Source: Patescibacteria group bacterium (GTDB lineage: Bacteria > Patescibacteriota > Patescibacteriia > Magasanikbacterales > UBA922). From it: DNA of 64,000 bases. Positions 816-58,127 of this stretch are shown here, in pieces. Numbering within the stretch: position 1 is the stretch's first letter; each line of letters begins with the position of its first letter. The notes under the pieces are model-generated. The model was not told where the DNA came from. It saw only the letters and a program-made list of their open reading frames with translations, and did not search any database. A program made the position numbers and the translations under genes. The stretch spans positions 96,368-160,367 of the forward strand of contig JBAZIZ010000001.1 in NCBI GenBank assembly GCA_041651535.1. The letters are read 5' to 3'.

Positions 816-883
816 TCGGCGGTAGCTCAGCGGTACCTGCCTGCCGGTTTACATACCGTTAGGTATGCAGGCAGGGAGCAACC
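816..883 (+). other. partial duplicate of tRNA-Asn 5' portion (positions 1-28) interrupted by a 40-nt hairpin element in the D-loop
   Basis: 816-835 identical to 1152-1171 (TCGGCGGTAGCTCAGCGGTA); 876-883 GAGCAACC matches 1172-1179 GAGCAACT; the 40 nt between them is absent from the intact gene. Confidence 0.6.
836..875 (+). repeat. 40-nt GC-rich nested-hairpin element (CCTGCCTGC-CGGTTTA-CATACC-GTTA-GGTATG-CAGGCAGG)
   Basis: perfect 9-bp outer stem and 6-bp inner stem; a second 40-nt copy with compensatory substitutions at 57989-58028; simpler relative at 47899-47918. Confidence 0.6.
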
Positions 884-892
884 AAATAAAAT

Positions 893-1078
893 ATGTATAA
901 AATATATATTATACAAAGTGAGAAAAATAATTTTTTATATGTAGGGCTAACATCGAATTTAGAAATTCGATTAAAATACCACAATCAAGGTAGAGTATTT
1001 TCAACAAAAGGTTATCGATCATGGAAATTAGTTTACACTGAAGAAGTTGAAACCAGACAAGAAGCAAGAAAAAGATAA
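893..1078 (+). CDS. small GIY-YIG nuclease-domain protein (COG2827/YhbQ-like), interrupted by an in-frame TAA; reading frame continues to 1144
   Basis: YIYIIQS...FLYVGLTSNLEIRLKYHNQG...WKLVYTEE is a GIY-YIG signature; after the TAA at 1076-1078 the same frame reads KYFKSGCGKEFIKNFLYKPAI, restoring the typical ~82-aa length. Confidence 0.6.
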   Translation: MYKIYIIQSEKNNFLYVGLTSNLEIRLKYHNQGRVFSTKGYRSWKLVYTEEVETRQEARKR

Positions 1079-1151
1079 AAATACTTTAAAAGTGGTTGTG
1101 GTAAGGAGTTTATTAAAAACTTTTTATACAAACCAGCAATTTAAAATTTAT

Positions 1152-1524
1152 TCGGCGGTAGCTCAGCGGTAGAGCAACTGGCTGTCGAAATGTGGCAGCT
1201 CTTGATAGAAATATCAGGATGAAAAACGAAGTGAATTGACAGGAAACCTTTTCTCGACTTAGTCGGGATGGTAATCTGCAGCCAAGTCTTAAATTATATC
1301 CCGTTGTAAAGGCGGAAAAATATTGTTTAAGAAAGGTTCAGAGACTATCTCATTTTGAGAGTAGTCTTCCGATATATTATCGGAAGCCGAAGCGCTTCGC
1401 ACCCGTAACGCTCTTGGAAATAAACCAGGTAAATGGCGTGGGTGATAAAATAGTCCAGTCTTTTTTGAAAAAAGAAGAAATAACTGTAACCAGTGGGTCG
1501 TGGGTTCGAGCCCCACTCGCCGAG
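1152..1524 (+). tRNA. tRNA-Asn(GUU) split by a 301-nt group I intron in the anticodon loop (exons 1152-1185 and 1487-1524; 73-nt mature tRNA, no encoded CCA)
   Basis: acceptor TCGGCGG/TCGCCGA pairs 7/7; D arm GCTC-AGCGGTA-GAGC; anticodon stem ACTGG/CCAGT; spliced loop CU-GUU-AA; T arm GTGGG-TTCGAGC-CCCAC; discriminator G. Confidence 0.7.
1186..1486 (+). ncRNA. group I self-splicing intron
   Basis: P1: exon GCUGU pairs intron GCAGC (1195-1199) with U.G at the splice site; P/Q/R/S-like elements AATTGACAGGAAA (1234-1246), AATCTGCAGCC (1273-1283), GGTTCAGAGACTAT (1335-1348), AAAATAGTCCAG (1448-1459) with the R/S GACTA/TAGTC P7 pairing; intron ends in G1486. Confidence 0.75.
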
Positions 1525-14589: not shown

Positions 14590-14700
14590 CTGTCCCACGA
14601 CAGAGTCGGGTCGGGGCTAAAATAAGGGATTTTTAGCGTGGGACAGGACACGTGGGACATTAATGAATATATTTTACTATGTCCCGAAAGTATTATCAAT
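14590..14700. other. GC-rich intergenic segment with inverted/direct GTCCCAC / GTGGGAC repeats (candidate regulator binding site or small RNA)
   Basis: GTCCCACG (14594-14601) and CGTGGGAC (14637-14644) form an 8-bp inverted repeat; a second ACGTGGGAC at ~14650-14658; GTCCCG again near 14680; GC content far above the surrounding AT-rich sequence. Confidence 0.3.
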
Positions 14701-24208: not shown

Positions 24209-24952
24209 CTATTTTTTAATTTTAGACTTTATAAAATCTAAAAATTTTTGATTAACCTGTAATTTTTGCTTACCATTTTCAAGTGTTAAATTAATTCCAG
24301 AAATATTTTTAAATAAAATTAAGGCGAATCTGATTACTTTTTTTGCATTACCTTTATCTTGCTTATTTCCAATATCGAAAGAATGAATATATTTATTTCT
24401 AATATTTCTAATTTCTTCTAACATTCTCGCGTTGTCTTCATCAATAATTTTAACTAAGTTCAATATTTTTATTCTTCTTTCTTGATCTACTTTACCAAAA
24501 AGAATTTTTTGTTCATTTTTATCAAGTATATTTCCACCCATTGAAAATTTATTCATTTCCCAAACAACATAAGACATCATTTCAGCAGAAAGTCCTGCAA
24601 GTGTAATACATGAAAGATATTCACCTAGAGTAAAATATTTTTTTGCTAAAAGTAAAGGTTGAATGATTCTATTGGTAATATCTTCATAATTTTGACTAGG
24701 AGTAATACCTAAATGAGTTTCGTCATCTGTAATTTCACAATATCGTCTTATTTCATCTTTTTTTATTTTAGAAAAATCTTTACCCAAAAAATCTTCCAGC
24801 ATTGAAATAGAATGATCCTGACGTTGTTTCAAATCTTTCTTTTTTGGTTTTGTTAATAACCAATTTTTATCATCTTCAGAAAAAATAGGACCGAAGCGAT
24901 TTAAATTTAGAAGAATAGTATTTCCTTGTGACATATCAACTACTTTCCTCAA
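24209..24952 (-). CDS. hypothetical protein with HEPN-like Rx4H motif; third gene of the MTase-helicase operon
   Basis: EEIRNIRNKYIHSFD near the C-terminus; start overlaps the MTase stop by 17 nt. Confidence 0.45.
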   Translation of the reverse strand: MRKVVDMSQGNTILLNLNRFGPIFSEDDKNWLLTKPKKKDLKQRQDHSISMLEDFLGKDFSKIKKDEIRRYCEITDDETHLGITPSQNYEDITNRIIQPLLLAKKYFTLGEYLSCITLAGLSAEMMSYVVWEMNKFSMGGNILDKNEQKILFGKVDQERRIKILNLVKIIDEDNARMLEEIRNIRNKYIHSFDIGNKQDKGNAKKVIRFALILFKNISGINLTLENGKQKLQVNQKFLDFIKSKIKK

Positions 24953-27900
24953 TAACTTTTATCTCCTCATCAGTTAAATCATAAAGCTTATAAACTAACT
25001 GATCAATTTCTTCTTCTAATTTAGAAGTGTCAGCATCTGAATTTTCTTTTCTTGTTTTTAGTAATGTGTCAACTAAATTTATAATCGGTCTTTGTTCTTC
25101 TAATGAAATACTAGGAATTGGTAAATTATTTATGGCGGGCATTGTGATTTGCCACCCAACGTAAGTTTTTGTATATAAGAAATTAATAACTTTAGAATTA
25201 AGTACCGCTAATAAATATTTTAATGAAAATTTTTGATTTTTCTGCAAACAAATATAAGCAGTATTTAATAAATAAAACTGATCATTATCAATAGTACAAA
25301 CGAAAGAATTACTTCTACGTGGAAAAATTATTTTCTCTTTTGCCAAAAACAGCCGTTCTTCCCTAGGTCTATGTAATTTTTTTGTATATTTAATATACCT
25401 ATTTTCTTTCTTTTTATCATATTCAATTAGATATTTTTTTATATCTCGTCCATCTAAGACCCTTTTGTAATTTTCATCAACTTTTTCATTAGCAAAAACA
25501 TCTTCCTTTTTTTGACCAGAGTATATAATACCTTGCTGAACCTCAATTATATCTGATAAGGTTGTCGAACTAGAATTAATTTTATTTATTATACAATTTA
25601 TATTGGCTGAATTTTTAGTTAAAATGATGTCATTGATATCTGACTGTTTAATTTCTGTAATTTTTTTATTTAAATCTAATAAAATTTGGATAGAGGAATC
25701 TTTTTTAGATTTATTCTTTAAAACAATCACCGAAGTGTCAACGGCCGCTTCAAAAACACGGGAAGAAAAGTTGGAGATAGTGCAAATTTGTGTTTTTTCT
25801 AATAAATATTTTCTAATATGTCTATATTCAGAATTTGTATATAAAGATTCTGGTAGAATGAAAGTTAGAATTCCATCAGTCTTTAATAATTTTTGACCTT
25901 TTTCTAAAAATAGTGTAAATAAATTAAATCTACCTTTACCTGTATCAAATAAAATAGAAAAACTTTTTTTGTTTTTAGATGTGATTTTTTTAACACTTAC
26001 GTATGGAGGATTGCCAATTACGACATCAAAACCACTTATACCAAACATAAATTTTGGATCAAAAAATTCTGCCACCTGTTCATTATCAAATGGATGATAC
26101 GACTGCAACTGTTCAAGTTTTTTGGATTTACCAAGTAAATTACCTTGATTTTTTGTTAATAAAAGCTTGTTAAACTTTTCTTTTAGGGCTGTCTTAACCT
26201 GCGGACTGCGAGCGTTAAAATATTTATCCCTAATATCCTGCATTTGTTTTTCCAAATCATCCGCTTCATCAAACATCTGTTTTTGTTTAGTATCATCCAA
26301 AGGAATTAGACTATTTGCACAAACAAATTTAAAATCAAGGTTTGGCAATGGTTTAATTTTGTTACTATCAACTTCTTCATCGACAACAATTGACAACCAT
26401 GCTCTAAGTCGTGAAATTTCCACTGCCATTGGCTCTATATCCACCCCATGCAAATTATTTTTGATAATCTCTAGTTTCTTTTTATAAGAATCAAATGTGG
26501 CATCCAATCTTTCATAAGTCTGCAAAAGCAGAGACAGCATACCCATAGGAAAAGCTCCGGATCCGCAAGCAGGATCAAGTATTTTTATTTCATCAAGGGC
26601 TTTTAGTATGTCATATTTATATGGTTTTAATTTATCACGATAATTTCTTTGCTGATCTCTCCAATCATGCTCTTTACTATCCAACAAATTATCTATTAAT
26701 TCAAATGACTTACCTTCATCACCAAGAGTATTTTTCAAATATTGCCTGAGACTCTCGCGAGACATATAATCAACTATTTCGCGAGGAGTATAAAAAGCAC
26801 CTTTGGCTTTTCTTGCCTGTTCTCCGGTTTCTTCTGTTTGTTCAGCTAACAAATTTTCAAAAATACGCCCTAACATCTCTGGGTCAATCGCCACTTGTTG
26901 AAATGTACTAGTACTTTCATCAGTTGTAAAATTGTAATGATGAAGAAAATCAACGAGTCGGTCAAAATAATCAGCAGGAAATGTAAGCTTTGGATCACCA
27001 TGCTTATCTCCAAGTTTTTCTTCAAATAAACCACCGTTCAAAAATGGAGTAATATTATCAATACTTTTCTCTCTATCCTCAATCGGAGTATTAAAAACTT
27101 TAAAAAATAAAGTTTCCAATTTTTCTCTGTAATATTCTGTTGAATTTTTTCCGCTAGTGTTAAAATAATCAATTTTATCATTAATAATACCTTTTTTATC
27201 TAAAAACCAACAAAATACTAATCTACCAATTAAACGATTGACGAAGTAAGAAGCGTGCTTATCGTCAAAAACTTTTTCCTTAATTAAATGTTGTTTTAAT
27301 TCTACAAAGAATGAGCTTACTTCCTTGTAGAATCGTTTGTTGAGAGGTTCAATGTCAAAGCTTTGCCATAAAATTTCATGGACTTGAGCTTTGTTTGTAA
27401 AATCAAATTCTTGTAGCCATTTTGAAAATATTTCTTGTTGCGTAATAGTTAATTCTCCTGAAAGTTCCAAAGTACGAATAACATAATTTTTACTTAATAC
27501 TACTATTACTTTGTCAGATCTTTCTGGAATAACAAAATCAATCCCTACATTTAGATTTCCATAAAAAGGCTCGTCCTCAAAATTCGGAGTAAGAGCCACA
27601 AGCCAACTGATAATTGATTTTTTAGGTTTCTTAACCCAATATACTTTTAAATCTATTTTTTCCAAATTATCATTTGATATTTTGTATGAAGCTCTACGGT
27701 CAGCAAAACCTTCCGCTTCCATAAACCAGCCAGCGTTTGATCTGATTTTACCTTGAGAATCTGTAAATAATTTCCATTCATTTTTGGATTCAATACCAAA
27801 TAATGATACCAAATTATTAATTACATTTTGAGTATTTGAAAAACTCTTTTCCTGTGACAGAATTTTTATTGATTCGTTTAATTCCTGAATTTTTTCTGGT

Positions 27901-27974
27901 AGTTTATTCATTGTCTTTGACATAATACAAAACTTGTTTTGAGCTGGTAGATTGAACAGGTCTATCTTTTCCAT
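24936..27974 (-). CDS. large (~1000 aa) gamma-class N6-adenine DNA methyltransferase (Eco57I / type IIG / PglX-like architecture)
   Basis: FYTPREIVDYM (motif X), ILDPACGSGAFPMG (motif I), VIGNPPYVSVKK (motif IV); ~370-aa N-terminal region and ~350-aa C-terminal putative target-recognition region. Confidence 0.8.
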   Translation of the reverse strand: MEKIDLFNLPAQNKFCIMSKTMNKLPEKIQELNESIKILSQEKSFSNTQNVINNLVSLFGIESKNEWKLFTDSQGKIRSNAGWFMEAEGFADRRASYKISNDNLEKIDLKVYWVKKPKKSIISWLVALTPNFEDEPFYGNLNVGIDFVIPERSDKVIVVLSKNYVIRTLELSGELTITQQEIFSKWLQEFDFTNKAQVHEILWQSFDIEPLNKRFYKEVSSFFVELKQHLIKEKVFDDKHASYFVNRLIGRLVFCWFLDKKGIINDKIDYFNTSGKNSTEYYREKLETLFFKVFNTPIEDREKSIDNITPFLNGGLFEEKLGDKHGDPKLTFPADYFDRLVDFLHHYNFTTDESTSTFQQVAIDPEMLGRIFENLLAEQTEETGEQARKAKGAFYTPREIVDYMSRESLRQYLKNTLGDEGKSFELIDNLLDSKEHDWRDQQRNYRDKLKPYKYDILKALDEIKILDPACGSGAFPMGMLSLLLQTYERLDATFDSYKKKLEIIKNNLHGVDIEPMAVEISRLRAWLSIVVDEEVDSNKIKPLPNLDFKFVCANSLIPLDDTKQKQMFDEADDLEKQMQDIRDKYFNARSPQVKTALKEKFNKLLLTKNQGNLLGKSKKLEQLQSYHPFDNEQVAEFFDPKFMFGISGFDVVIGNPPYVSVKKITSKNKKSFSILFDTGKGRFNLFTLFLEKGQKLLKTDGILTFILPESLYTNSEYRHIRKYLLEKTQICTISNFSSRVFEAAVDTSVIVLKNKSKKDSSIQILLDLNKKITEIKQSDINDIILTKNSANINCIINKINSSSTTLSDIIEVQQGIIYSGQKKEDVFANEKVDENYKRVLDGRDIKKYLIEYDKKKENRYIKYTKKLHRPREERLFLAKEKIIFPRRSNSFVCTIDNDQFYLLNTAYICLQKNQKFSLKYLLAVLNSKVINFLYTKTYVGWQITMPAINNLPIPSISLEEQRPIINLVDTLLKTRKENSDADTSKLEEEIDQLVYKLYDLTDEEIKVIEESS

Positions 27975-30900
27975 CCAAAGTCTTATAAGATAAACTGATC
28001 AATTCTTTTAATTCATCTAGGAAACCTTCGTTTGCTCTTTTTTGTTTCACAATCTTTCTGACTAGTCTTCTTATTATCTGTTGATCTATAATATTTTTTG
28101 TTTGAAAAGCCAGTCTGACTTGTTCAATATCCTCTTCCAATGTTTGACTTTCAAATAAAATTCTTAGTAATTCTGTTTGTTGAGGAAGTGGAGCACCTAT
28201 TTCATCATCCTCTGAATAAGTGGCAATGCTTTGTCTTACCTTTTCATCTATCATTTGTTTGTCCACGCTAATGTTGTCAGAAACTCTTTCATTATTATCA
28301 TCAGTTGTTCTCAACCACTCTAGAGCCTGCAAATTGGTTACAGCCTGAAAATTAGATCCGTCCCTTAACATAGAGACAAAACTATGACCAATTACTTCAT
28401 AATTTTCATCACGTAAATTATTAAAGGATAAAACATCTGGTCTTTGCTCACCGCGATGAACAGTATTTGGCATAATAGCCCATTTACCAAGTGAAATATT
28501 GTATATTTTATCTCTGTACTCTTCGGATAATTTATCATTAAGATGAAAGTTTTTTAGATCTGCTACAAAAATATCTTCTGCCAACAAGAAATCAGCTTCT
28601 CTTTCTAATTTTTCCATTGCTTCAATACGTTTTTGAATATCTTCACTATAAATATCTTTTAGATTATCAGTATATTCAATCGGATTTGCTAGCTCGTCTA
28701 GTACGGGGGAATCGGTACCGATAGTATTTTTAATCAAATTAATTTTGCCTTCTAATCTTTCAACCAGTTGTAGATACTCTTCAAGTTTTGCTTCTGGTGA
28801 AATATTGTAAATATAAACTTTGTCATATGTACTACCTAAACGATTTACACGACCATTTCTTTGAATCATTCGAACAGGGTTCCAATGCAAATCATAGTTA
28901 ACAAGAATTCCACAATCTTGAAGATTTTGACCTTCCGATAGGATGTCGGTTGAAAATAAATAATCTAATTCAGTTTCATCGTCTTTGATTTTATAATTTT
29001 TTGCTTTTGGTGCAAATCTATTTGCCGAGTTTTCGCTATCAACTCTATTTTTAGATGAAATGAATGCGGAATTTTCATTTGTAATAAATTTTGCGTATTC
29101 AGGCAATGCTTCTTTTAAATATTCTACTGTATCAGCATAAAATGAAAAAATTAAAACCTTTTTTCCTGCTGGCTGTTCTTTTTGAAGATTTTTTAATAAT
29201 TCCGCAAAAGATCTAATTTTAGAATCATCTTTACCTAAAATAGAAAGTTGTCTATCAAGAATATCTATCAATATTCTTTCTCTTCGTATATCTTCTCTCA
29301 GTGCTTCTATATTATATTTTTTATCATCAATATCATCCAATTCCATTTCTTCATCAATTTTAATATCTTCAGGATTAAAATCTTCATCACCAATACCCAA
29401 CATTTCTTCAATATTACTGAGATTTTTTAGACTAACGATTTTACCAATATCCAAACCTTTTTCAAAAACATCCAATTTTCTTTTGTAAATGTCTAGAGAA
29501 CTTCTAATCGCACTAACAGATGACTCTAATCTTTTTAAGAACATCGTTCGCAAAATCCCATAGATACTTAATTGAAGAAATAATGATTTACTTTCTCTTT
29601 CATCAAGTTTCATGGCTTTTACTTCACCTCTTGTTTTTCCATAGTATTTTGTTTGATACATCATCCATCTATAAGGAACAAATCCTAACAATAAAATTAT
29701 CTGATAAACAAAAGCGACAGCTGATAAATTTGAAAATTTTTCATCATCTACTTCTGCTTCCAAATTTTCAATTTGATCAAGAGGGTGTAAAAGTGCATTT
29801 GTGTTTTTAACAATCTTATCAATTGGTAATCTGTAAATTTTACCCAGATCCACTTCATTACTTTCTAGATTTTTAACTTCATCAGCTACTTCTTTATTAA
29901 AACCATATTTTTTAACCTCTGGAACAACAGTTGGAAAATGACTTTCTTTACCACCAATATTCAATCCGCCATATTCTTTTTCTATCCCTTGCCTTGTCCT
30001 CCTAACAACAAAAGCTCTAATAATAGGAGCCATTACTTGCTGGACATAATTTTTATCAAAACTTCCATCTCTTTTTAGATCCTGTTTTATTTTCTTTTGT
30101 AAATTTTCAATTGCTTGATAAAAAGACATTTGAACCGTCTGTTTCAACTTTTTATCAACCGATGTCACTTTTAATACATCGGCAACACCTCTAGTACCAA
30201 GTAATATTTGATTTACAATATCACCTAATTGATTGTTAATAGGAGTGGCAGTAAGTAGAAGTACGTGAGCTTTGGGGTTATTTCTTATCCATTCAATAAT
30301 TTGATCAAATCTTTTTCCTCCGCGATTTTTTAAATTATGAGATTCATCAATAACAAATAACGATACACTGGCAATATTATCAAGCTCTTTTTTTCTTTCA
30401 ATTTCATTGGGATTTTGCAATGTAATTGGCGAAAGACCCAAAACTCCTTGTATTGCCATTTCTTTTTCCCATTGAGTTTTTAAGGATTTTGGACAAATAA
30501 TTTCAACACGCTGTTGTCCAGAGTCAGTATTAAGATATTGTTTTATTACTTCAATAGCAGTATATGTTTTCCCCAAACCAACAGAATCTGCCAACATAGC
30601 AACTTTATATTTTTTCAATCTTCTAACAAGGGCATGAACATTTTTGACTTGAAAATCCAAAAGATCATATTTACCTTTGATAGTTTCATCTAAGTTTTCT
30701 TCAATCAATTCATCGCTATACAAATCATAAAGTGTTTTTATATATGTTTCATAAGGACTAAAAAGAGTATCGCCAGCTGGTGAATTTTCTAATAATTCAG
30801 TAAATTGACCATTCCATTCTTCTGTTTGAGGATCATCCCAAAATTTATCAAACCAAAATAAATGACCAACTTCTTGGGTTTTAGATTTTGGTTGAAATGT

Positions 30901-31395
30901 TACAATTCTATGATCAGGTTCAAGAGAATTCAGTTCGGTATTTGAAGTCAATCCATTTTTTGTAAAATTGGATGACCCAATAATTCCAATCGCATTATCT
31001 GAAGAATAATCACCAAATATATAACATTTTGCATGAAGAAAATTCTTTCGATAAACACGAACTTCCAAATTACCATTTTTAATCATTACTTTTATTTCCT
31101 TGACTAATTCTTTTAATTCAGGGGTCGGTTGAATTCTTTCTAGATCATAAAAAAAATCTTTATCAGGATAATCTGGCTCTGGTTCAAGTTTTTTATGTCT
31201 TGGTATAAGGGGCTCTCTACCAATTAGTAGCCTGATTTTTTTATAGTCTTTGATCAAATCAAAGACTTCTTGCATTCCTTTTAGATCCCAATATCCAGTT
31301 GCAATTGAGAGATTTTGATAGTTTGAAGTTATTGATTTTATTGTATCCAATAAAACAACCCTATCATTATCAATGATTTTATGAAGATTTGACAT
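27904..31395 (-). CDS. HKD (PLD-family) nuclease domain fused to SNF2-family helicase
   Basis: single HKD motif FLHAKCYIF...GIIGSSNFTKNG; helicase motif I LADSVGLGKTYTAI, motif II DESHNLKN, motif VI QRNGRVNRLGS. Confidence 0.8.
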   Translation of the reverse strand: MSNLHKIIDNDRVVLLDTIKSITSNYQNLSIATGYWDLKGMQEVFDLIKDYKKIRLLIGREPLIPRHKKLEPEPDYPDKDFFYDLERIQPTPELKELVKEIKVMIKNGNLEVRVYRKNFLHAKCYIFGDYSSDNAIGIIGSSNFTKNGLTSNTELNSLEPDHRIVTFQPKSKTQEVGHLFWFDKFWDDPQTEEWNGQFTELLENSPAGDTLFSPYETYIKTLYDLYSDELIEENLDETIKGKYDLLDFQVKNVHALVRRLKKYKVAMLADSVGLGKTYTAIEVIKQYLNTDSGQQRVEIICPKSLKTQWEKEMAIQGVLGLSPITLQNPNEIERKKELDNIASVSLFVIDESHNLKNRGGKRFDQIIEWIRNNPKAHVLLLTATPINNQLGDIVNQILLGTRGVADVLKVTSVDKKLKQTVQMSFYQAIENLQKKIKQDLKRDGSFDKNYVQQVMAPIIRAFVVRRTRQGIEKEYGGLNIGGKESHFPTVVPEVKKYGFNKEVADEVKNLESNEVDLGKIYRLPIDKIVKNTNALLHPLDQIENLEAEVDDEKFSNLSAVAFVYQIILLLGFVPYRWMMYQTKYYGKTRGEVKAMKLDERESKSLFLQLSIYGILRTMFLKRLESSVSAIRSSLDIYKRKLDVFEKGLDIGKIVSLKNLSNIEEMLGIGDEDFNPEDIKIDEEMELDDIDDKKYNIEALREDIRRERILIDILDRQLSILGKDDSKIRSFAELLKNLQKEQPAGKKVLIFSFYADTVEYLKEALPEYAKFITNENSAFISSKNRVDSENSANRFAPKAKNYKIKDDETELDYLFSTDILSEGQNLQDCGILVNYDLHWNPVRMIQRNGRVNRLGSTYDKVYIYNISPEAKLEEYLQLVERLEGKINLIKNTIGTDSPVLDELANPIEYTDNLKDIYSEDIQKRIEAMEKLEREADFLLAEDIFVADLKNFHLNDKLSEEYRDKIYNISLGKWAIMPNTVHRGEQRPDVLSFNNLRDENYEVIGHSFVSMLRDGSNFQAVTNLQALEWLRTTDDNNERVSDNISVDKQMIDEKVRQSIATYSEDDEIGAPLPQQTELLRILFESQTLEEDIEQVRLAFQTKNIIDQQIIRRLVRKIVKQKRANEGFLDELKELISLSYKTLDGKDRPVQSTSSKQVLYYVKDNE

Positions 31396-33803: not shown

Positions 33804-34751
33804 TTAAAAAGGTAAATCTTCTATTATGTTAGAATCCTCTTTTAGAACCCAGATTGCATTTTTGTTAATTTTATATTTATTAAGATAATTATTTTTAATA
33901 TTTTCCACTTCTTCCGTTGAAATAAATTTTTCTGGTAAAGATAAAATCACCAACTCTGCAATCGACATACAATTATATGTTACTAATTTATAAAAATTAG
34001 AATTATTTACTGGAATAGTATTTTGATCTGTATGCCTTATGTTACTGATCTGATTCGCTAAATCTTTAGAGTTTTTAACAGCATCGTTAAGTAATTTTGT
34101 TAGCGATAAAACGTTCTTTTCGCTAGTCCACTTTTGAGATACCATTTTGCAAAGATTTTCACTGTAATTCTTTGTATTTTTTTTATCCTTTGGACTACTA
34201 AAAATATTTTGTATTAAATCAGCAGTGATTCTTGATAAAACTTGATAATTAGGATTCTCAATATTTGTTAAGAAAAACTCTTCCAACTTATCTTTTAAAG
34301 ACTTATTTTTTATGAATGGCACAACTGACCTAACACCGGTTATATTTTTATTAAAAAATAAATACTCATGTATCAAAAATGGCGTATCTTCTTCCTCTAA
34401 TATATAATTAATTCTTGTTATAACAATACTCCTCTTTTCTTGTTTACTAAAAATAATTAAAATTTCTAATAAATCAAATATTACTGCATCTTTTTTATTA
34501 GAATAACTTAAACAATTTTTTAAATCAACATAATCCACAATAGAATTTCCTATTTCTCTCATTCCTAACTCTTTAAGAGAATCATGATTTAAACAAAATA
34601 TATTTTTTTCCTCGTTATATACTAAAAGAAAACGTTCAATATATTCATCGCTACTTGATATAAATTTAATCTCTTCAAGAAGACGGTTTCTTATTCTTTC
34701 TTCTAGAAAATTTTTATCTGCTTGTTTATATCTTTTTGAAAATAATTCCAT
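33804..34751 (-). CDS. hypothetical protein
   Basis: 315-aa ORF. Confidence 0.5.
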   Translation of the reverse strand: MELFSKRYKQADKNFLEERIRNRLLEEIKFISSSDEYIERFLLVYNEEKNIFCLNHDSLKELGMREIGNSIVDYVDLKNCLSYSNKKDAVIFDLLEILIIFSKQEKRSIVITRINYILEEEDTPFLIHEYLFFNKNITGVRSVVPFIKNKSLKDKLEEFFLTNIENPNYQVLSRITADLIQNIFSSPKDKKNTKNYSENLCKMVSQKWTSEKNVLSLTKLLNDAVKNSKDLANQISNIRHTDQNTIPVNNSNFYKLVTYNCMSIAELVILSLPEKFISTEEVENIKNNYLNKYKINKNAIWVLKEDSNIIEDLPF

Positions 34752-34806
34752 AATAAAAAACTAAACACAAACGAGAACTACCTCGCTTAAATTAAGACCC
34801 CCAAAA

Positions 34807-34833
34807 ACGGATTGGTTTCATAAAAATTATTTT
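34807..34833. repeat. degenerate copy 2 of the direct repeat (GGATTGGTTTCATAAAAATTAT)
   Basis: about 16/22 identity to the core motif. Confidence 0.35.
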
Positions 34834-35010
34834 TTCAGGGATAAGGCTTCGTCTTTCGTCGGCTTCCACCTCCTTAGACTAGTATAATTTTATACATAAT
34901 AACAGCTTATATTGTACTATCTTTTAACCTAAAAGTAAAGTTAATTAAAAAAACAAAAATCGCCTATAAATGGCGATTTTTGCATATAAAACTTAGGTGA
35001 AGTTTTCTGA

Positions 35011-35039: not shown

Positions 35040-35043
35040 CTGC

Positions 35044-35114
35044 TCGGGGACAGGGATTCGAACCCCGATAGCCAGGACCAAAACCTGGAGTCCTACCGTT
35101 AGACGATCCCCGAA
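35044..35114 (-). tRNA. tRNA-Gln(UUG)
   Basis: reverse complement TCGGGGA-TC-GTCT-AACGGTA-GGAC-T-CCAGG-TTTTGGT-CCTGG-CTAT-CGGGG-TTCGAAT-CCCTG-TCCCCGA-G; U1:A72 as in many tRNA-Gln; anticodon UUG. Confidence 0.8.
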
Positions 35115-35594
35115 TATTGTATATATTATTAAATTGTAATTTTCACAAAACTCACATGTTTGTTTACATACCGTTAGACCCGTCCGCCATGGCTTCGCCG
35201 TAGGCGTGCCGGGCGGGCGATCCCCGAATATTGTATATATTATTAAATTGTAATTTTCACAAAACTCACATGTTTGTTTACATACCGTTAGACCCGTCCG
35301 CCATGGCTTCGCCGTAGGCGTGCCGGGCGGGCAATCCCCGAATATTGTATATATTATTAAATTGTAATTTTCACAAAACTCACATGTTTGTTTACATACC
35401 GTTAGACCCGTCCGCCATGGCTTCGCCGTAGGCGTGCCGGGCGGGCGATCCCCGAATATTGTATATATTATTAAATTGTAAATTTCACAAAACTCACATG
35501 TTTGTTTACATACCGTTAGACCCGTCCGCCATGGCTTCGCCGTAGGCGTGCCGGGCGGGCGATCCCCGAATATTGTATTTTAACAAAAAATTAT
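35115..35594. repeat. four tandem copies of a 120-bp unit, each ending in the tRNA-Gln 5' end (positions 1-10)
   Basis: units at 35115-35234, 35235-35354, 35355-35474, 35475-35594 are near-identical; on the tRNA strand each reads tRNA[1-10] + 39-nt GC-rich segment + tRNA[11-20] + AT-rich tail; the trailing copy is truncated. Confidence 0.8.
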
Positions 35595-35602
35595 TTTAGC
35601 TT

Positions 35603-36508
35603 TTATTTCCTTAAATATTTACTCATTGCAAAAGAACTTGATAAAGCAGTGAGTAAAAATACTACTAAAAACTGAAAACTTACGAGCTCCATTATATTAG
35701 AATAATAGTATTTTGTCAATAGATCTTGCGCTGAAAAAATTACATTTAAATAATTATCCAAAAAAGAAACAGCAAATAGTATAATCAAAAAAGATAAAAC
35801 TATGCTGAGCATAGAAAATACCAAAGCTTCAATTATATATGGACCTTTTACATACCAATTTGTTGCTCCAACCAATTTTTTTATTCCAATTTCAATTCTC
35901 TGTGTATAAATTGCAACTCTGATAGTATTAAAAATTATTACAAAAGAAATAATAGCAAATAAAGCAGTCAGAAAATAAGTAAATTTTTCCAATTGGTTTG
36001 TTACATTAGTTATTTTTTCGATCGCAATTTCTGTATCATCAAAAGTTTTTGCTTCAATTATTCCACGGTATTCTGGTACATCCAAAGCAGAAATTATTTT
36101 TTTATAATCTCTTGGATCTCTAGTTTTAACAATTAAAGTTGGCCCTAATGGATTTTCTCCAAGTTCAGTCAAAGATAACATAATTTCTTCATTATCAGCA
36201 TAAAGTTTTTTAAAATTTTCCAAAACCTGTTCTTTTGTTAAAAAAGTTTCACTAGTTACTTCTGGAAAAGAACTAATATAACTTCTGATTTCAGAAATTT
36301 CTTCTTCAACAGCTTTAGCATTAAAATAAACACTAACATCAATTTGGTCTTTGACTGTATCAATAGATTTTTGTGTAATTATTCTTACAACAATCAAAGT
36401 ATTTATAGACAGAAGCATCAAAATCAAAATCAAAACTGTCATGAATGACAAACTAAAATTTCTAAAAATATCTTGAAAAGCAAATTTTAAAATTCTAATA
36501 AAACCCAT
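35603..36508 (-). CDS. ftsX: cell-division ABC transporter permease FtsX
   Basis: N-terminal FtsX fold, 4 TM segments, adjacent to ftsE. Confidence 0.8.
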   Translation of the reverse strand: MGFIRILKFAFQDIFRNFSLSFMTVLILILMLLSINTLIVVRIITQKSIDTVKDQIDVSVYFNAKAVEEEISEIRSYISSFPEVTSETFLTKEQVLENFKKLYADNEEIMLSLTELGENPLGPTLIVKTRDPRDYKKIISALDVPEYRGIIEAKTFDDTEIAIEKITNVTNQLEKFTYFLTALFAIISFVIIFNTIRVAIYTQRIEIGIKKLVGATNWYVKGPYIIEALVFSMLSIVLSFLIILFAVSFLDNYLNVIFSAQDLLTKYYYSNIMELVSFQFLVVFLLTALSSSFAMSKYLRK

Positions 36509-47898: not shown

Positions 47899-47918
47899 CC
47901 TGCCTACCGGCAGGCAGG
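47899..47918. terminator. GC-rich hairpin CCTGCCT-ACCGGC-AGGCAGG between convergent genes (bidirectional terminator); related to the outer stem of the 40-nt hairpin elements
   Basis: 7-bp GC stem extended by TTCAA/TTGAA, followed by TTTTT. Confidence 0.5.
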
Positions 47919-57390: not shown

Positions 57391-57700
57391 TGTGTCTGGT
57401 GTGGTTGGCTTAAATATTTAAAGAACGGAGAGTTCACAAAATGACAAGCCACCACAACCAAACATAACTTATAATGACACACTTCTCTTTTTTTGTCAAG
57501 AGCTTACAATTATATTTTATTTTAAAACTAAATATGTTATAATATATTCTGTTAATTTAATTAAAGAAAAACTTGACTTATTTATTATTTTGTTATATTA
57601 TATTAGCGTTATTATTTTAATAATTGACTGAAAGCTCAGTTGTAAACGTCTCGACGATACGTCGGAAAAGGTCCTGATTAATTATAAAAAATTTTAAAAT

Positions 57701-57773
57701 GGTCTGGTAGCTCAGTCGGTAGAGCAGCTGCCTTTTAAGCAGAAGGTCCTGGGTTCGAATCCCAGCCGGATCA
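57701..57773 (+). tRNA. tRNA-Lys(UUU)
   Basis: GGTCTGG-TA-GCTC-AGTCGGTA-GAGC-A-GCTGC-CTTTTAA-GCAGA-AGGTC-CTGGG-TTCGAAT-CCCAG-CCGGATC-A. Confidence 0.85.
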
Positions 57774-57781
57774 CAAGATAA

Positions 57782-57813
57782 AAATCACTTATTTAAAGTG
57801 ATTTTGTTTTTTT
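57782..57813 (+). terminator. AT-rich hairpin AAATCACTT / AAGTGATTT + T-run (tRNA-Lys terminator; repeated in each 115-bp unit)
   Basis: 9-bp stem followed by TTTTGTTTTTTT. Confidence 0.45.
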
Positions 57814-57988
57814 AATAAAGATTTTCAATTTAGAGCAGTCCCGACGATACGTCGGGAAAGGTCCTGGGTTCGAATCCCAGCCGGATCACAAGACAAAAAT
57901 CACTTATTTAAAGTGATTTTGTTTTTTTAATAAAGATTTTCAATTTAGAGCAGTCCCGACGATACGTCGGAAAAGGTCCTGTGGTTCG

Positions 57989-58028
57989 CCTGCCTGTCGG
58001 TTTATATGCCGTTAGGCATGTAGGCAGG
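57989..58028 (+). repeat. second 40-nt nested-hairpin element CCTGCCTG-TCGGTTTAT-ATGCC-GTTA-GGCAT-GTAGGCAGG
   Basis: same length and architecture as 836-875; inner stem changed CATACC/GGTATG to ATGCC/GGCAT (compensatory); inserted between TTCG and AATCC of the T-loop. Confidence 0.6.
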
Positions 58029-58127
58029 AATCCCAGCCGGATCACAAGACAAAAATCACTTATTTAAAGTGATTTTGTTTTTTTAAATAAAATTACAAAA
58101 ATAAAAAAATCGTTTTTAAACGATTTT

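Follow-up and report, generated by a model that had tools for sequence, protein, structure and literature searches.

Split tRNA-Gln fragments in a Patescibacteria tandem array: a probable relic of a homing-endonuclease-like cassette

Introduction

Why should the 5' end of a tRNA gene be repeated in tandem beside the functional gene, each copy broken at the same point by a GC-rich palindrome, in a chromosome that is otherwise AT-rich and densely coding? The question is raised by a 64-kb stretch (27% GC; the whole of it is referred to below as the window) of a chromosome of the Patescibacteria, or candidate phyla radiation (CPR), on contig JBAZIZ010000001.1, in which such an array lies beside a tRNA-Gln gene. 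The FtsE protein encoded in the window is at most 77% identical to proteins from Candidatus Magasanikbacteria and other Patescibacteria metagenome-assembled genomes, and the organism is therefore a CPR bacterium without a close sequenced relative.

We argue here that the array is probably an amplified, four-fold relic of a homing-endonuclease-like selfish cassette of CPR bacteria, devoid of the open reading frame (ORF) that such cassettes carry, and that by itself it is probably functionless debris, not a gene. In its canonical form, the cassette consists of a displaced 5' tRNA fragment (from tRNA position 1, written t1, to t10-25), split in the D-stem (t10/11 or t11/12) by a GC palindrome of 30-50 nt; an ORF for a GIY-YIG protein of 78-87 amino acids (aa) begins 1-13 nt after the fragment, and the complete tRNA gene lies 0-70 nt past the stop codon. 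The unit in the window is the left end of this cassette and belongs to an ORF-less class that comprises nearly half of the family.

Results

Anatomy of the array

The array occupies positions 35104-35578 (Tandem Repeats Finder: period 114 bp, 4.2 copies, 99% matches, score 936), and its proximal end meets an intact, functional tRNA-Gln(UUG) gene on the minus strand (35043-35113; ARAGORN; Rfam RF00005 tRNA, 56.3 bits), which, as read from the sequence, has the U1-A72 pair and G73 of the bacterial tRNA-Gln type. On the tRNA strand, each unit is composed of TCGGGGATCG (t1-10), the 39-nt GC-rich palindrome CCCGCCCGGCACGCCTACGGCGAAGCCATGGCGGACGGG (hereafter GC39), TCTAACGGTA (t11-20) and an AT-rich spacer of 55 nt, of which 46 nt stand at the ORF position of relatives and the final 9 nt, ATACAATAT, are the native sequence immediately 5' of tRNA-Gln. 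All units lie on the minus strand. The proximal unit 1 (35114-35227) has t1-10 at 35218-35227, GC39 at 35179-35217, t11-20 at 35169-35178 and the spacer at 35114-35168; the same segments are found in unit 2 (35228-35341) at 35332-35341, 35293-35331, 35283-35292 and 35228-35282, in unit 3 (35342-35455) at 35446-35455, 35407-35445, 35397-35406 and 35342-35396, and in the distal unit 4 (35456-35569) at 35560-35569, 35521-35559, 35511-35520 and 35456-35510. A further copy of ATACAATAT (tRNA positions -9 to -1; 35570-35578, minus strand) marks the distal repeat boundary, beyond which lie unique sequence and the ftsX stop codon.

An earlier, sequence-only reading of this stretch had recognized the tandem array next to tRNA-Gln and its plan of t1-10, 39-nt GC insert, t11-20 and AT-rich tail, both of which are borne out, but it gave the period as 120 bp instead of 114 bp and the tail as 61 nt instead of 55 nt; accordingly, the unit starts that it placed at 35235, 35355 and 35475 are out of register, the true register being 35104/35218/35332/35446/35560. 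Its statement that the array follows tRNA-Gln holds in plus-strand coordinates and fails in the gene's own orientation, where the array lies upstream (5') of the tRNA. The units differ from each other solely by two single-nucleotide polymorphisms (SNPs): 35333 G>A on the plus strand, which gives unit 2 the t1-10 sequence TCGGGGATTG and corresponds to the GGGCGAT versus GGGCAAT substitution noticed in that reading, and 35482 T>A in the spacer of unit 4. With 99% identity and two SNPs, the units have the appearance expected of the recent amplification that it proposed.

A second public assembly (L001) matches every base of the window from 35341 on and terminates inside the array, so that the two assemblies agree exactly across 2.1 units, unit 4 being identical in L001. 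Three unit variants can be distinguished (canonical, 35333A and 35482A), and at least three units are therefore present. The repeat is real; its exact copy number is taken from a single assembly.

The units were compared with several kinds of known features. As tRNAs, they escape both ARAGORN and Rfam, which detect solely the intact gene at 35043-35113 even at E <= 10, the units ending at t20; no Rfam 15 family overlaps them at the gathering score or at E <= 10, and a known RNA family or ribozyme is accordingly rejected as far as described families go. Since 114 equals 3 x 38, the array contains a stop-free frame of 179 codons on the tRNA strand, which we rejected as coding because it lacks a start codon in frame; among its Pfam 'hits', no stretch passes alone, and none is a real match to the GIY-YIG family. 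The array units encode no GIY-YIG nuclease, and the array is thus at most a derivative, not a complete cassette. A CRISPR array is rejected because whole 114-bp units are 99% identical, with no unique spacers. A promoter consensus scan yielded 5 matches against 3.0 +/- 1.8 expected, no excess over chance, the sole call inside the array falling in a SNP-bearing unit. GC39 is confined to the four copies of the array and is absent from the rest of the 64 kb with up to 3 mismatches allowed (chance expectation 0), and downstream of the window tRNA-Gln no decayed 3' fragment of tRNA-Gln is detectable.

A tRNA-linked cassette with a minimal GIY-YIG gene

Metagenomes were scanned for the split unit with the pattern GGGATCGCCCGCC-N20-40-GGTCTAAYGG (t4-10, CCCGCC, N20-40, GG, t11-18), which recovered 42 loci with 31-54% GC and both tRNA-Gln isoacceptors. 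In ~55% of these loci, a GIY-YIG ORF begins 1-13 nt past the fragment, the tRNA D-loop sequence GGTAGGA occupies the place ahead of the ORF at which a ribosome-binding site would be expected, and the intact tRNA-Gln, where located, lies 243-330 nt beyond the fragment. No ORF is present in 17 of the 38 measurable loci, the window included, where the gap between fragment and tRNA is 8-72 nt (170 nt in one case); in the window it is 57 nt. Tandem copies of the tRNA-Gln split unit were found in the window alone among the 42 scanned loci.

The cassette ORFs are intact and conserved, and their sole Pfam match, PF01541, covers nearly the entire protein. The nearest solved structures are those of the UPF0213 proteins 1YWL (E 1.2e-6) and 1ZG2 (E 5.5e-6). 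The proteins have no separate DNA-binding domain of the I-TevI/Seg type, and the NCBIfam model of group I intron endonucleases matches residues 1-37 only, below its cut-off. A profile search places more than 7,246 members in the family at E <= 1e-10, with named sources belonging mostly to CPR lineages.

The locus itself offers a comparison of occupied and empty sites. In the window, ftsE and ftsX (ftsX at 35603-36508; both assigned) directly adjoin the array, whose neighbours further include an ORF without assignment at 33804-34751, and the ftsE-ftsX-tRNA-Gln order is kept in ~60 of 80 related loci, mostly with the tRNA directly after ftsX. Displaced fragments are present in ~7 of these ~60 syntenic loci and absent from the others, and 5 of the ~7 hold the GIY-YIG ORF. 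In this minority, the 5' tRNA-Gln fragment lies upstream of the intact gene and is broken by GC-rich hairpins: L003 carries a 39-nt CCCGCC...GCGGGCAGG insert precisely at t10/t11, and in L033, L057, L028 and L075 the split fragment is followed by a small GIY-YIG ORF and then by the intact tRNA-Gln. Across ~850 kb of these loci, a GIY-YIG hidden Markov model (HMM) matched solely 0-364 nt from tRNA genes. Many relatives also hold 3' tRNA fragments (t54-72) downstream of tRNA-Gln. Tandem cassette versions recur elsewhere, with 82 bp x2.3 in L014 and 62 bp in at least three copies in L028, and also in L126, in L127 and at the tRNA-Lys locus of the window.

Other kinds of ORF were seen in the same ftsX-tRNA-Gln gap, both assigned from motifs by eye: a LAGLIDADG-like ORF in L020 (7650-8330), and in L014 (7745-8105) a four-helix-bundle ORF that resembles the proteins of 23S rRNA intervening sequences.

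Contexts sampled through the protein

To view the family independently of the palindrome pattern, ten members were picked only for long contigs and taxonomic spread. Nine of the ten contexts, all independent, are adjacent to a tRNA gene and contain a displaced fragment split by a palindrome, and they cover seven tRNA identities: tRNA-Asn (L124, a complete Roizmanbacteria genome, and L127), tRNA-Ile (L125), tRNA-Lys (L130/131), tRNA-Cys (L126, where the cassette is on the 3' side and the ORF itself is duplicated), tRNA-Arg (L132), tRNA-Gln (L133 and L134) and tRNA-Thr (L135/136). The palindrome is usually located in the D-stem at 10/11 or 11/12 (...AGC|TCA... or ...TCG|TCT...) or at 19-21, and the tRNA flank on its right is as short as 4-5 nt in L124, L130 and L134. 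Displaced fragments usually retain the variable acceptor bases of the resident tRNA.

In the tenth context (L128/129), which is not a tRNA locus, the palindrome halves CCCGCCCGCC...GGCGGGCGGG flank the GIY-YIG ORF (L128, ~1440-1830; L129, ~400-760). This cassette sits at the 3' end of an ORF for a 104-aa protein, and a diverged duplicate of the C-terminal coding end of that ORF lies downstream. This arrangement raises the possibility that an element carrying the ORF has the palindromes as its termini.

Relatives of the 39-nt segment thus exist in many genomes, nearly always within displaced tRNA fragments beside a small GIY-YIG gene, and are hosted by the tRNA identities Gln, Thr, Lys, Ile, Asn, Arg and Cys. 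Whether the unit also occurs away from tRNA genes has a qualified answer: its surroundings are almost always tRNA loci, the exception being L128/L129, where the halves flank the ORF at a protein-coding locus. Given the range of tRNA identities together with this exception, the segment is part of a mobile cassette and not peculiar to tRNA-Gln.

Cassettes at the other tRNA genes of the window

All three tRNA genes of the window (Gln, Asn and Lys) carry such fragments. The tRNA-Asn cassette (816-1144, plus strand) comprises t1-20 at 816-835, a 40-nt palindrome, CCTGCCTG...CAGGCAGG, at 836-875, the sequence GAGCAACC and a GIY-YIG ORF at 893-1144, and sits directly 5' of the intact tRNA-Asn. The ORF has 83 codons and is recognizable as GIY-YIG by tblastn, translation and HMM, with an in-frame TAA at codon 62 that could reflect either a decaying gene or a sequencing error. 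The adjacent tRNA-Asn(GUU) (1152-1524, plus strand; exons 1152-1185 and 1487-1524) is interrupted at 35/36 by a group I intron (Rfam Intron_gpI, 78.8 bits, E 3.4e-20, 1176-1477), which a scan of the whole window at the gathering threshold missed. The 'tRNA-Ser' that ARAGORN calls at 1439-1525 is an artefact and represents the 3' half of this intron-split tRNA-Asn(GUU). Group I introns occur in Patescibacteria tRNA genes (PMC13011429).

The parallel with tRNA-Lys drawn in the sequence-only reading is upheld, inasmuch as partial tRNA copies broken by GC hairpins are found there too. The tRNA-Lys(UUU) locus (57651-58045, plus strand) has an intact tRNA at 57701-57774 and three partial copies distributed over both sides of it. 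Upstream, a hairpin fragment is joined to t43-51 (57651-57676); downstream, each of two units contains TAGAGCAG (t20-27), a hairpin in place of the anticodon arm and the 3' part of the tRNA. These hairpins (57839-57857 and 57954-57972) read TCCCGACG-ATA-CGTCGG(G/A)A and have the form TCCCGACG-ATA-CGTCGGGA. The second downstream unit contains, in addition, a 40-nt palindrome in the T-loop (57989-58028), which is a near-copy of the palindrome at 836-875 residing in a different tRNA pseudo-fragment; between the two, the inner stem shows a compensatory change from A-T to G-C (CATACC/GGTATG versus TATGCC/GGCATG) that keeps the pairing. A TCCCGAC...GTCGGGA hairpin related to the one at tRNA-Lys was also seen in the tRNA-Asn array of L014 and in L116. 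The typA gene adjoins the tRNA-Lys locus.

Properties of the palindromes

GC39 shares 82-83% identity with the palindromes in L130 (Lys) and L134 (Gln) and with the reverse complement of that in L135 (Thr), which places it in the palindrome family that travels with the cassettes. Its ends are inverted (CCCGCC.../...GGCGG(A)CGGG), and none of the insertions shows a visible target-site duplication. GC39 folds into an ordinary nested hairpin with three helices, with energies of -19.5 kcal/mol on the sense and -22.5 kcal/mol on the antisense strand (z about -2), and the idea of an exceptionally stable hairpin was abandoned, since it is only modestly better than shuffled sequences. The clamp of the hairpin contains a C.A mismatch on the tRNA-sense strand and the G.U wobble version on the antisense strand.

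Both orientations of the palindrome occur at the same tRNA position, in L096 versus L098 and in L105 versus L084, the members of each pair being 97% identical as reverse complements while self-complementarity in these four loci is only ~80%. L028 and L057 share a 19-nt element, again as reverse complements of each other, at different tRNA positions. Because both orientations occur at the same site, the evidence points to the palindrome being a DNA-level entity, inverted between terminal repeats or inserted either way, and not a strand-specific RNA motif.

The palindrome subtype co-segregates with the protein subfamily: CGCAA/TGCAA palindromes accompany proteins with '...YYEAC...GFGR', and TCGAC/TCGCG palindromes those with '...TKKY.PW...AGRK'. 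A simple nested RNA structure for all palindromes fails for a subset, a third of the inserts, in which the interior is interleaved (A X Y loop X' Y' A') and not nested; 12 of 38 cores are perfect (10/10) in this respect, against 0 of 1,900 shuffles, and the interleaved complementarity shows matching changes, or covariation, between subfamilies. The interleaved inserts, all at t10/t11, are those of L084, L089, L091, L096, L098, L099, L105, L106, L114, L115 and L122. An H-type pseudoknot with linkers of zero length would be sterically implausible.

In the ORF-bearing loci, to which the measurement is confined because the compared windows overlap in ORF-less loci, the palindrome shortens the longest stretch that matches the intact tRNA exactly, whose median falls from ~20 nt to ~11-12 nt. 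Longer displaced fragments carry several palindromes, 8-18 nt apart (L003, L028, L057).

Perfect palindromes of the CCTGCC(TGCC)GGCAGGCAGG type are found at REP-like (repetitive extragenic palindromic) intergenic positions in many of these CPR genomes, among them L009, L016, L019, L028, L057, L088 and L116, and at 47899-47918 of the window. GC-rich double hairpins (CCCCTC..GAGGGGTGGAC...GGACGGGGTG) lie in or beside an ORF resembling 3-methyladenine glycosylase in L063 (7840-7890 and 8110-8160) and L071 (7830-7885), and may be in-frame palindromic insertions in the coding region.

Other features of the window

A scan of the window for GC islands returned GC-rich hairpins at tRNA loci, the LOOT RNA (RF03000; 22603-22721, minus strand; 92.8 bits, full-length) and two terminator-like hairpins, with few further islands remaining. 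The palindrome at 47899-47918 is followed by a T-run and is terminator-like, and an isolated intergenic GC-rich island at 14601-14618 (CCCACGACAGAGTCGGGTCGGGGC) has no Rfam match at the gathering threshold. Across low-GC loci, the density of perfect GC hairpins near tRNAs is ~2-fold higher (24 in 77 kb versus 48 in 293 kb), a crude measure that counts terminators and misses intron-split tRNAs, and which we do not use as evidence. A GC-richer, hairpin-prone leader (34800-34890, minus strand) lies 5' of the unassigned ORF at 33804-34751 and has no Rfam match at E <= 10. Two large adjacent genes (24936-31395, minus strand) resemble defence components, with all matches under the curated cut-offs: one (1012 aa) is similar to the BREX PglX adenine methyltransferase, and the other (1163 aa) resembles an SNF2 helicase, with matches of the DISARM DrmD-like and phospholipase-D-like types.

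Discussion

How a cassette might give rise to the array

The scenario that we consider probable for the array starts from a working cassette. The ORF would encode a homing-type nuclease, expressed from the promoter of the displaced tRNA, and the functional tRNA would be processed from the same transcript downstream. Spread of the cassette could proceed by break repair or homology-anchored recombination, for which the highly conserved tRNA would provide portable homology. In the lineage represented by the window, the nuclease gene would have been lost or never present; gene loss is the usual fate of homing-endonuclease genes. Unequal recombination of sister chromosomes, perhaps set off where the nuclease had broken the tRNA gene, could then have multiplied the 114-bp unit, which lies between direct repeats of tRNA positions -9 to +20, into at least four copies. 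Experimentally, tandem amplification at tRNA loci is driven by SegB, a GIY-YIG enzyme of phage (PMC13096335).

The role of the palindrome is the weakest step of this scenario. We infer that it acts at the level of DNA, splitting the displaced tRNA copy where cleavage would probably take place so that the copy would no longer be a target of the nuclease, and roughly halving the uninterrupted homology with the functional tRNA, by which the cassette may be stabilized against deletion. The several palindromes spaced 8-18 nt apart in longer fragments fit such a homology-breaking, protective role.

A number of observations weigh against the relic interpretation. The 46-nt spacer contains no detectable remnant of a GIY-YIG ORF (best score 30 versus a shuffled mean of 35, with 40 cassettes), and the loss of the ORF is for this reason argued from comparison with the family. 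As the cassette proteins have no DNA-binding domain, they do not readily qualify as classical homing endonucleases with sequence specificity. An intact copy of the presumed target is regenerated by the cassette, and the scenario does not account for self-immunity; the agreement of the fragments with the acceptor bases of the resident tRNA is more conservation than expected of old junk; and the covariation of the interleaved segments (X Y ... X' Y') is not predicted by a simple role as spacer or homology breaker. The number of units, finally, comes from one assembly. The interleaved covariation and the pairing of palindrome subtype with protein hint at a more specific interaction.

Alternative explanations

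Such an interaction is at the centre of an alternative that we regard as unlikely, in which the palindrome hairpin would serve as a handle bound by the domain-less GIY-YIG nuclease and the tRNA flanks would act as a guide, pairing with the tRNA gene to the left and right of the t10/t11 junction. The pairing molecule might be a transcript or a single DNA strand, and the units and arrays without ORF would be non-autonomous guide copies served in trans; by this doubtful account, the cassette would be a reprogrammable, guide-dependent homing system with a nuclease of ~80 aa and at least seven tRNA identities. The interleaved X Y ... X' Y' segments would then be part of the handle or a conformational switch. 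The account draws on the nuclease being a bare catalytic domain, on the palindrome lying always within tRNA-identical sequence just 5' of the ORF and on the same strand, on its subtype following the protein subfamily, on flanks that mostly remain identical to the resident tRNA, on the movement of the design to seven or more tRNA identities and on the covariation of complementary segments within the palindrome. However, the occurrence of either orientation at the same site is hard to square with a specific RNA handle, the GC39 clamp has its mismatch on the tRNA-sense strand and the G.U version on the antisense strand, the right flank goes down to 4-5 nt, the array has neither an Rfam match nor a convincing promoter call, and a guide of this kind would also target the adjacent intact tRNA. 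Equally unlikely, in our estimate, are independent palindromes resembling REP sequences or miniature inverted-repeat transposable elements (MITEs), with GC39 having landed in a neutral tRNA fragment, the array having arisen by replication slippage and neither having any link to GIY-YIG genes. Palindromes of the CCTGCCTGCCGGCAGGCAGG type are indeed scattered intergenically in many of these genomes, with one at position 47899 of the window, L028 and L057 carry the 19-nt element in opposite orientations and at different tRNA positions, and insertions would be tolerated solely in non-functional copies; yet in many tRNA identities and lineages the CCCGCC-type palindromes are found at one and the same place in the tRNA (D-stem 10/11-11/12), and they vary together with the adjacent protein subfamily, their halves in L128/L129 flank the ORF itself, GC39 is found nowhere else in the 64 kb, and the adjacent AT-rich spacers and ORFs are free of such inserts.

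Two further explanations appear highly improbable. Partial tRNA duplications beside tRNA genes are a classical footprint of integrative elements, and the array could in principle consist of attachment (att) scars left by integrase-driven elements that integrated repeatedly at tRNA-Gln and were later deleted; the partial duplication itself and the t54-72 fragments downstream of tRNA-Gln in many relatives are what such a history would leave. What is duplicated here, however, is the 5' end with promoter-proximal sequence instead of the 3' end; the array is not bordered by an integrase gene, its neighbours being ftsX/ftsE and the ORF without assignment; the interval between repeats holds 46 nt here and a single GIY-YIG ORF of ~250 bp in relatives, no island; and a palindrome within the repeat is no feature of att sites. 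That the assembler expanded a single unit into tandem copies is just as hard to credit. A short-read assembly (k141) does break inside the array, and a period of 114 bp, being shorter than the k-mer, leaves the copy number poorly constrained, but the exact agreement of two assemblies over 2.1 units, the three or more units demanded by the three variants and the comparable tandem versions in unrelated assemblies speak against it, and one unit alone would still be a member of this cassette family.

Implications

If the cassette is what we take it to be, thousands of CPR/Patescibacteria genomes would harbour a compact selfish element that colonizes tRNA genes without inactivating them. It would account for the tRNA fragments, GC hairpins and short tandem arrays that litter the tRNA loci of these reduced genomes, as well as for assembly breaks and mis-calls of tRNA finders at such loci, and nuclease-associated tandem amplification at tRNA loci, shown for phage SegB, would extend to bacterial chromosomes. 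The cassettes also provide a genomic context for the very large UPF0213-like family of single-domain GIY-YIG proteins. They raise the question of how a nuclease of 80 residues without a DNA-binding domain finds tRNA genes, and what purpose is served by a conserved, invertible and sometimes interleaved palindrome.

Comparison with known systems

Among the closest counterparts is the Seg family, exemplified by SegB in the tRNA cluster of T-even phages. Seg proteins exceed 200 aa and include a DNA-binding domain, whereas the cassette proteins, known here from sequence, comprise the catalytic domain only within their 78-87 aa, and their hosts are CPR chromosomes, not phages. We know of no Seg locus with a displaced tRNA fragment split by a palindrome. 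Common to both are a free-standing GIY-YIG gene at tRNA genes, variably present (PMC2330249, PMC13096335), and, in the case of SegB, tandem segmental amplification at the tRNA locus via break-induced homologous recombination (PMC13096335).

With the insertions of free-standing endonuclease genes in fungal and algal organelles, the cassette shares an invading ORF that brings or creates a replacement for part of its target, the displaced part persisting as a pseudo-fragment. GC-rich palindromic mini-elements, such as the GC clusters of yeast mitochondria and double-hairpin elements, coexist with endonuclease-gene insertions in AT-rich organelle genomes. The cassette differs from the organelle insertions in targeting tRNA genes, in hosts that are free-living or episymbiotic bacteria, and in duplicating no more than 10-30 bp; its palindrome, moreover, keeps a fixed position within the displaced fragment and goes with the nuclease subfamily. 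The group I introns with homing endonucleases that reside in tRNA genes of Patescibacteria, one of which interrupts the window tRNA-Asn, have the same hosts and the same kind of target, but the cassette has neither ribozyme nor splicing, and the tRNA is kept functional by duplication, not by intron removal. The study of these introns is silent on split fragments, on hairpins and on tandem repeats, with 0 matches to the terms 'hairpin' and 'tandem' (PMC13011429).

REP sequences and the mosaic elements built from them (bacterial interspersed mosaic elements, BIMEs), Rickettsia palindromic elements and MITE-like elements resemble the cassette palindromes as short GC-rich palindromes that occur in either orientation and form sequence families across loci and genomes. 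The cassette palindromes are set apart by the absence of any visible target-site duplication and, for the CCCGCC type, by their tie to one position in the tRNA fragment and to a GIY-YIG neighbour in place of a dispersal between genes. Single-domain GIY-YIG proteins of the UPF0213/YhbQ type match the cassette ORFs at the sequence level; in the searchable literature, we found no work that links UPF0213 or YhbQ to GIY-YIG and none on a tRNA-linked cassette of this kind, nor did full-text searches, which exclude subscription-only papers, bring up a description of the cassette. Its components have precedents, namely T4 SegB at tRNA loci, organelle insertions with partial target duplication, mobile GC palindromes of AT-rich genomes and the group I introns of CPR tRNA genes. 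Apparently undescribed is their combination, in which a minimal GIY-YIG ORF is joined to a displaced 5' tRNA fragment and to a cognate palindrome that is invertible and keeps to a fixed position in the tRNA.

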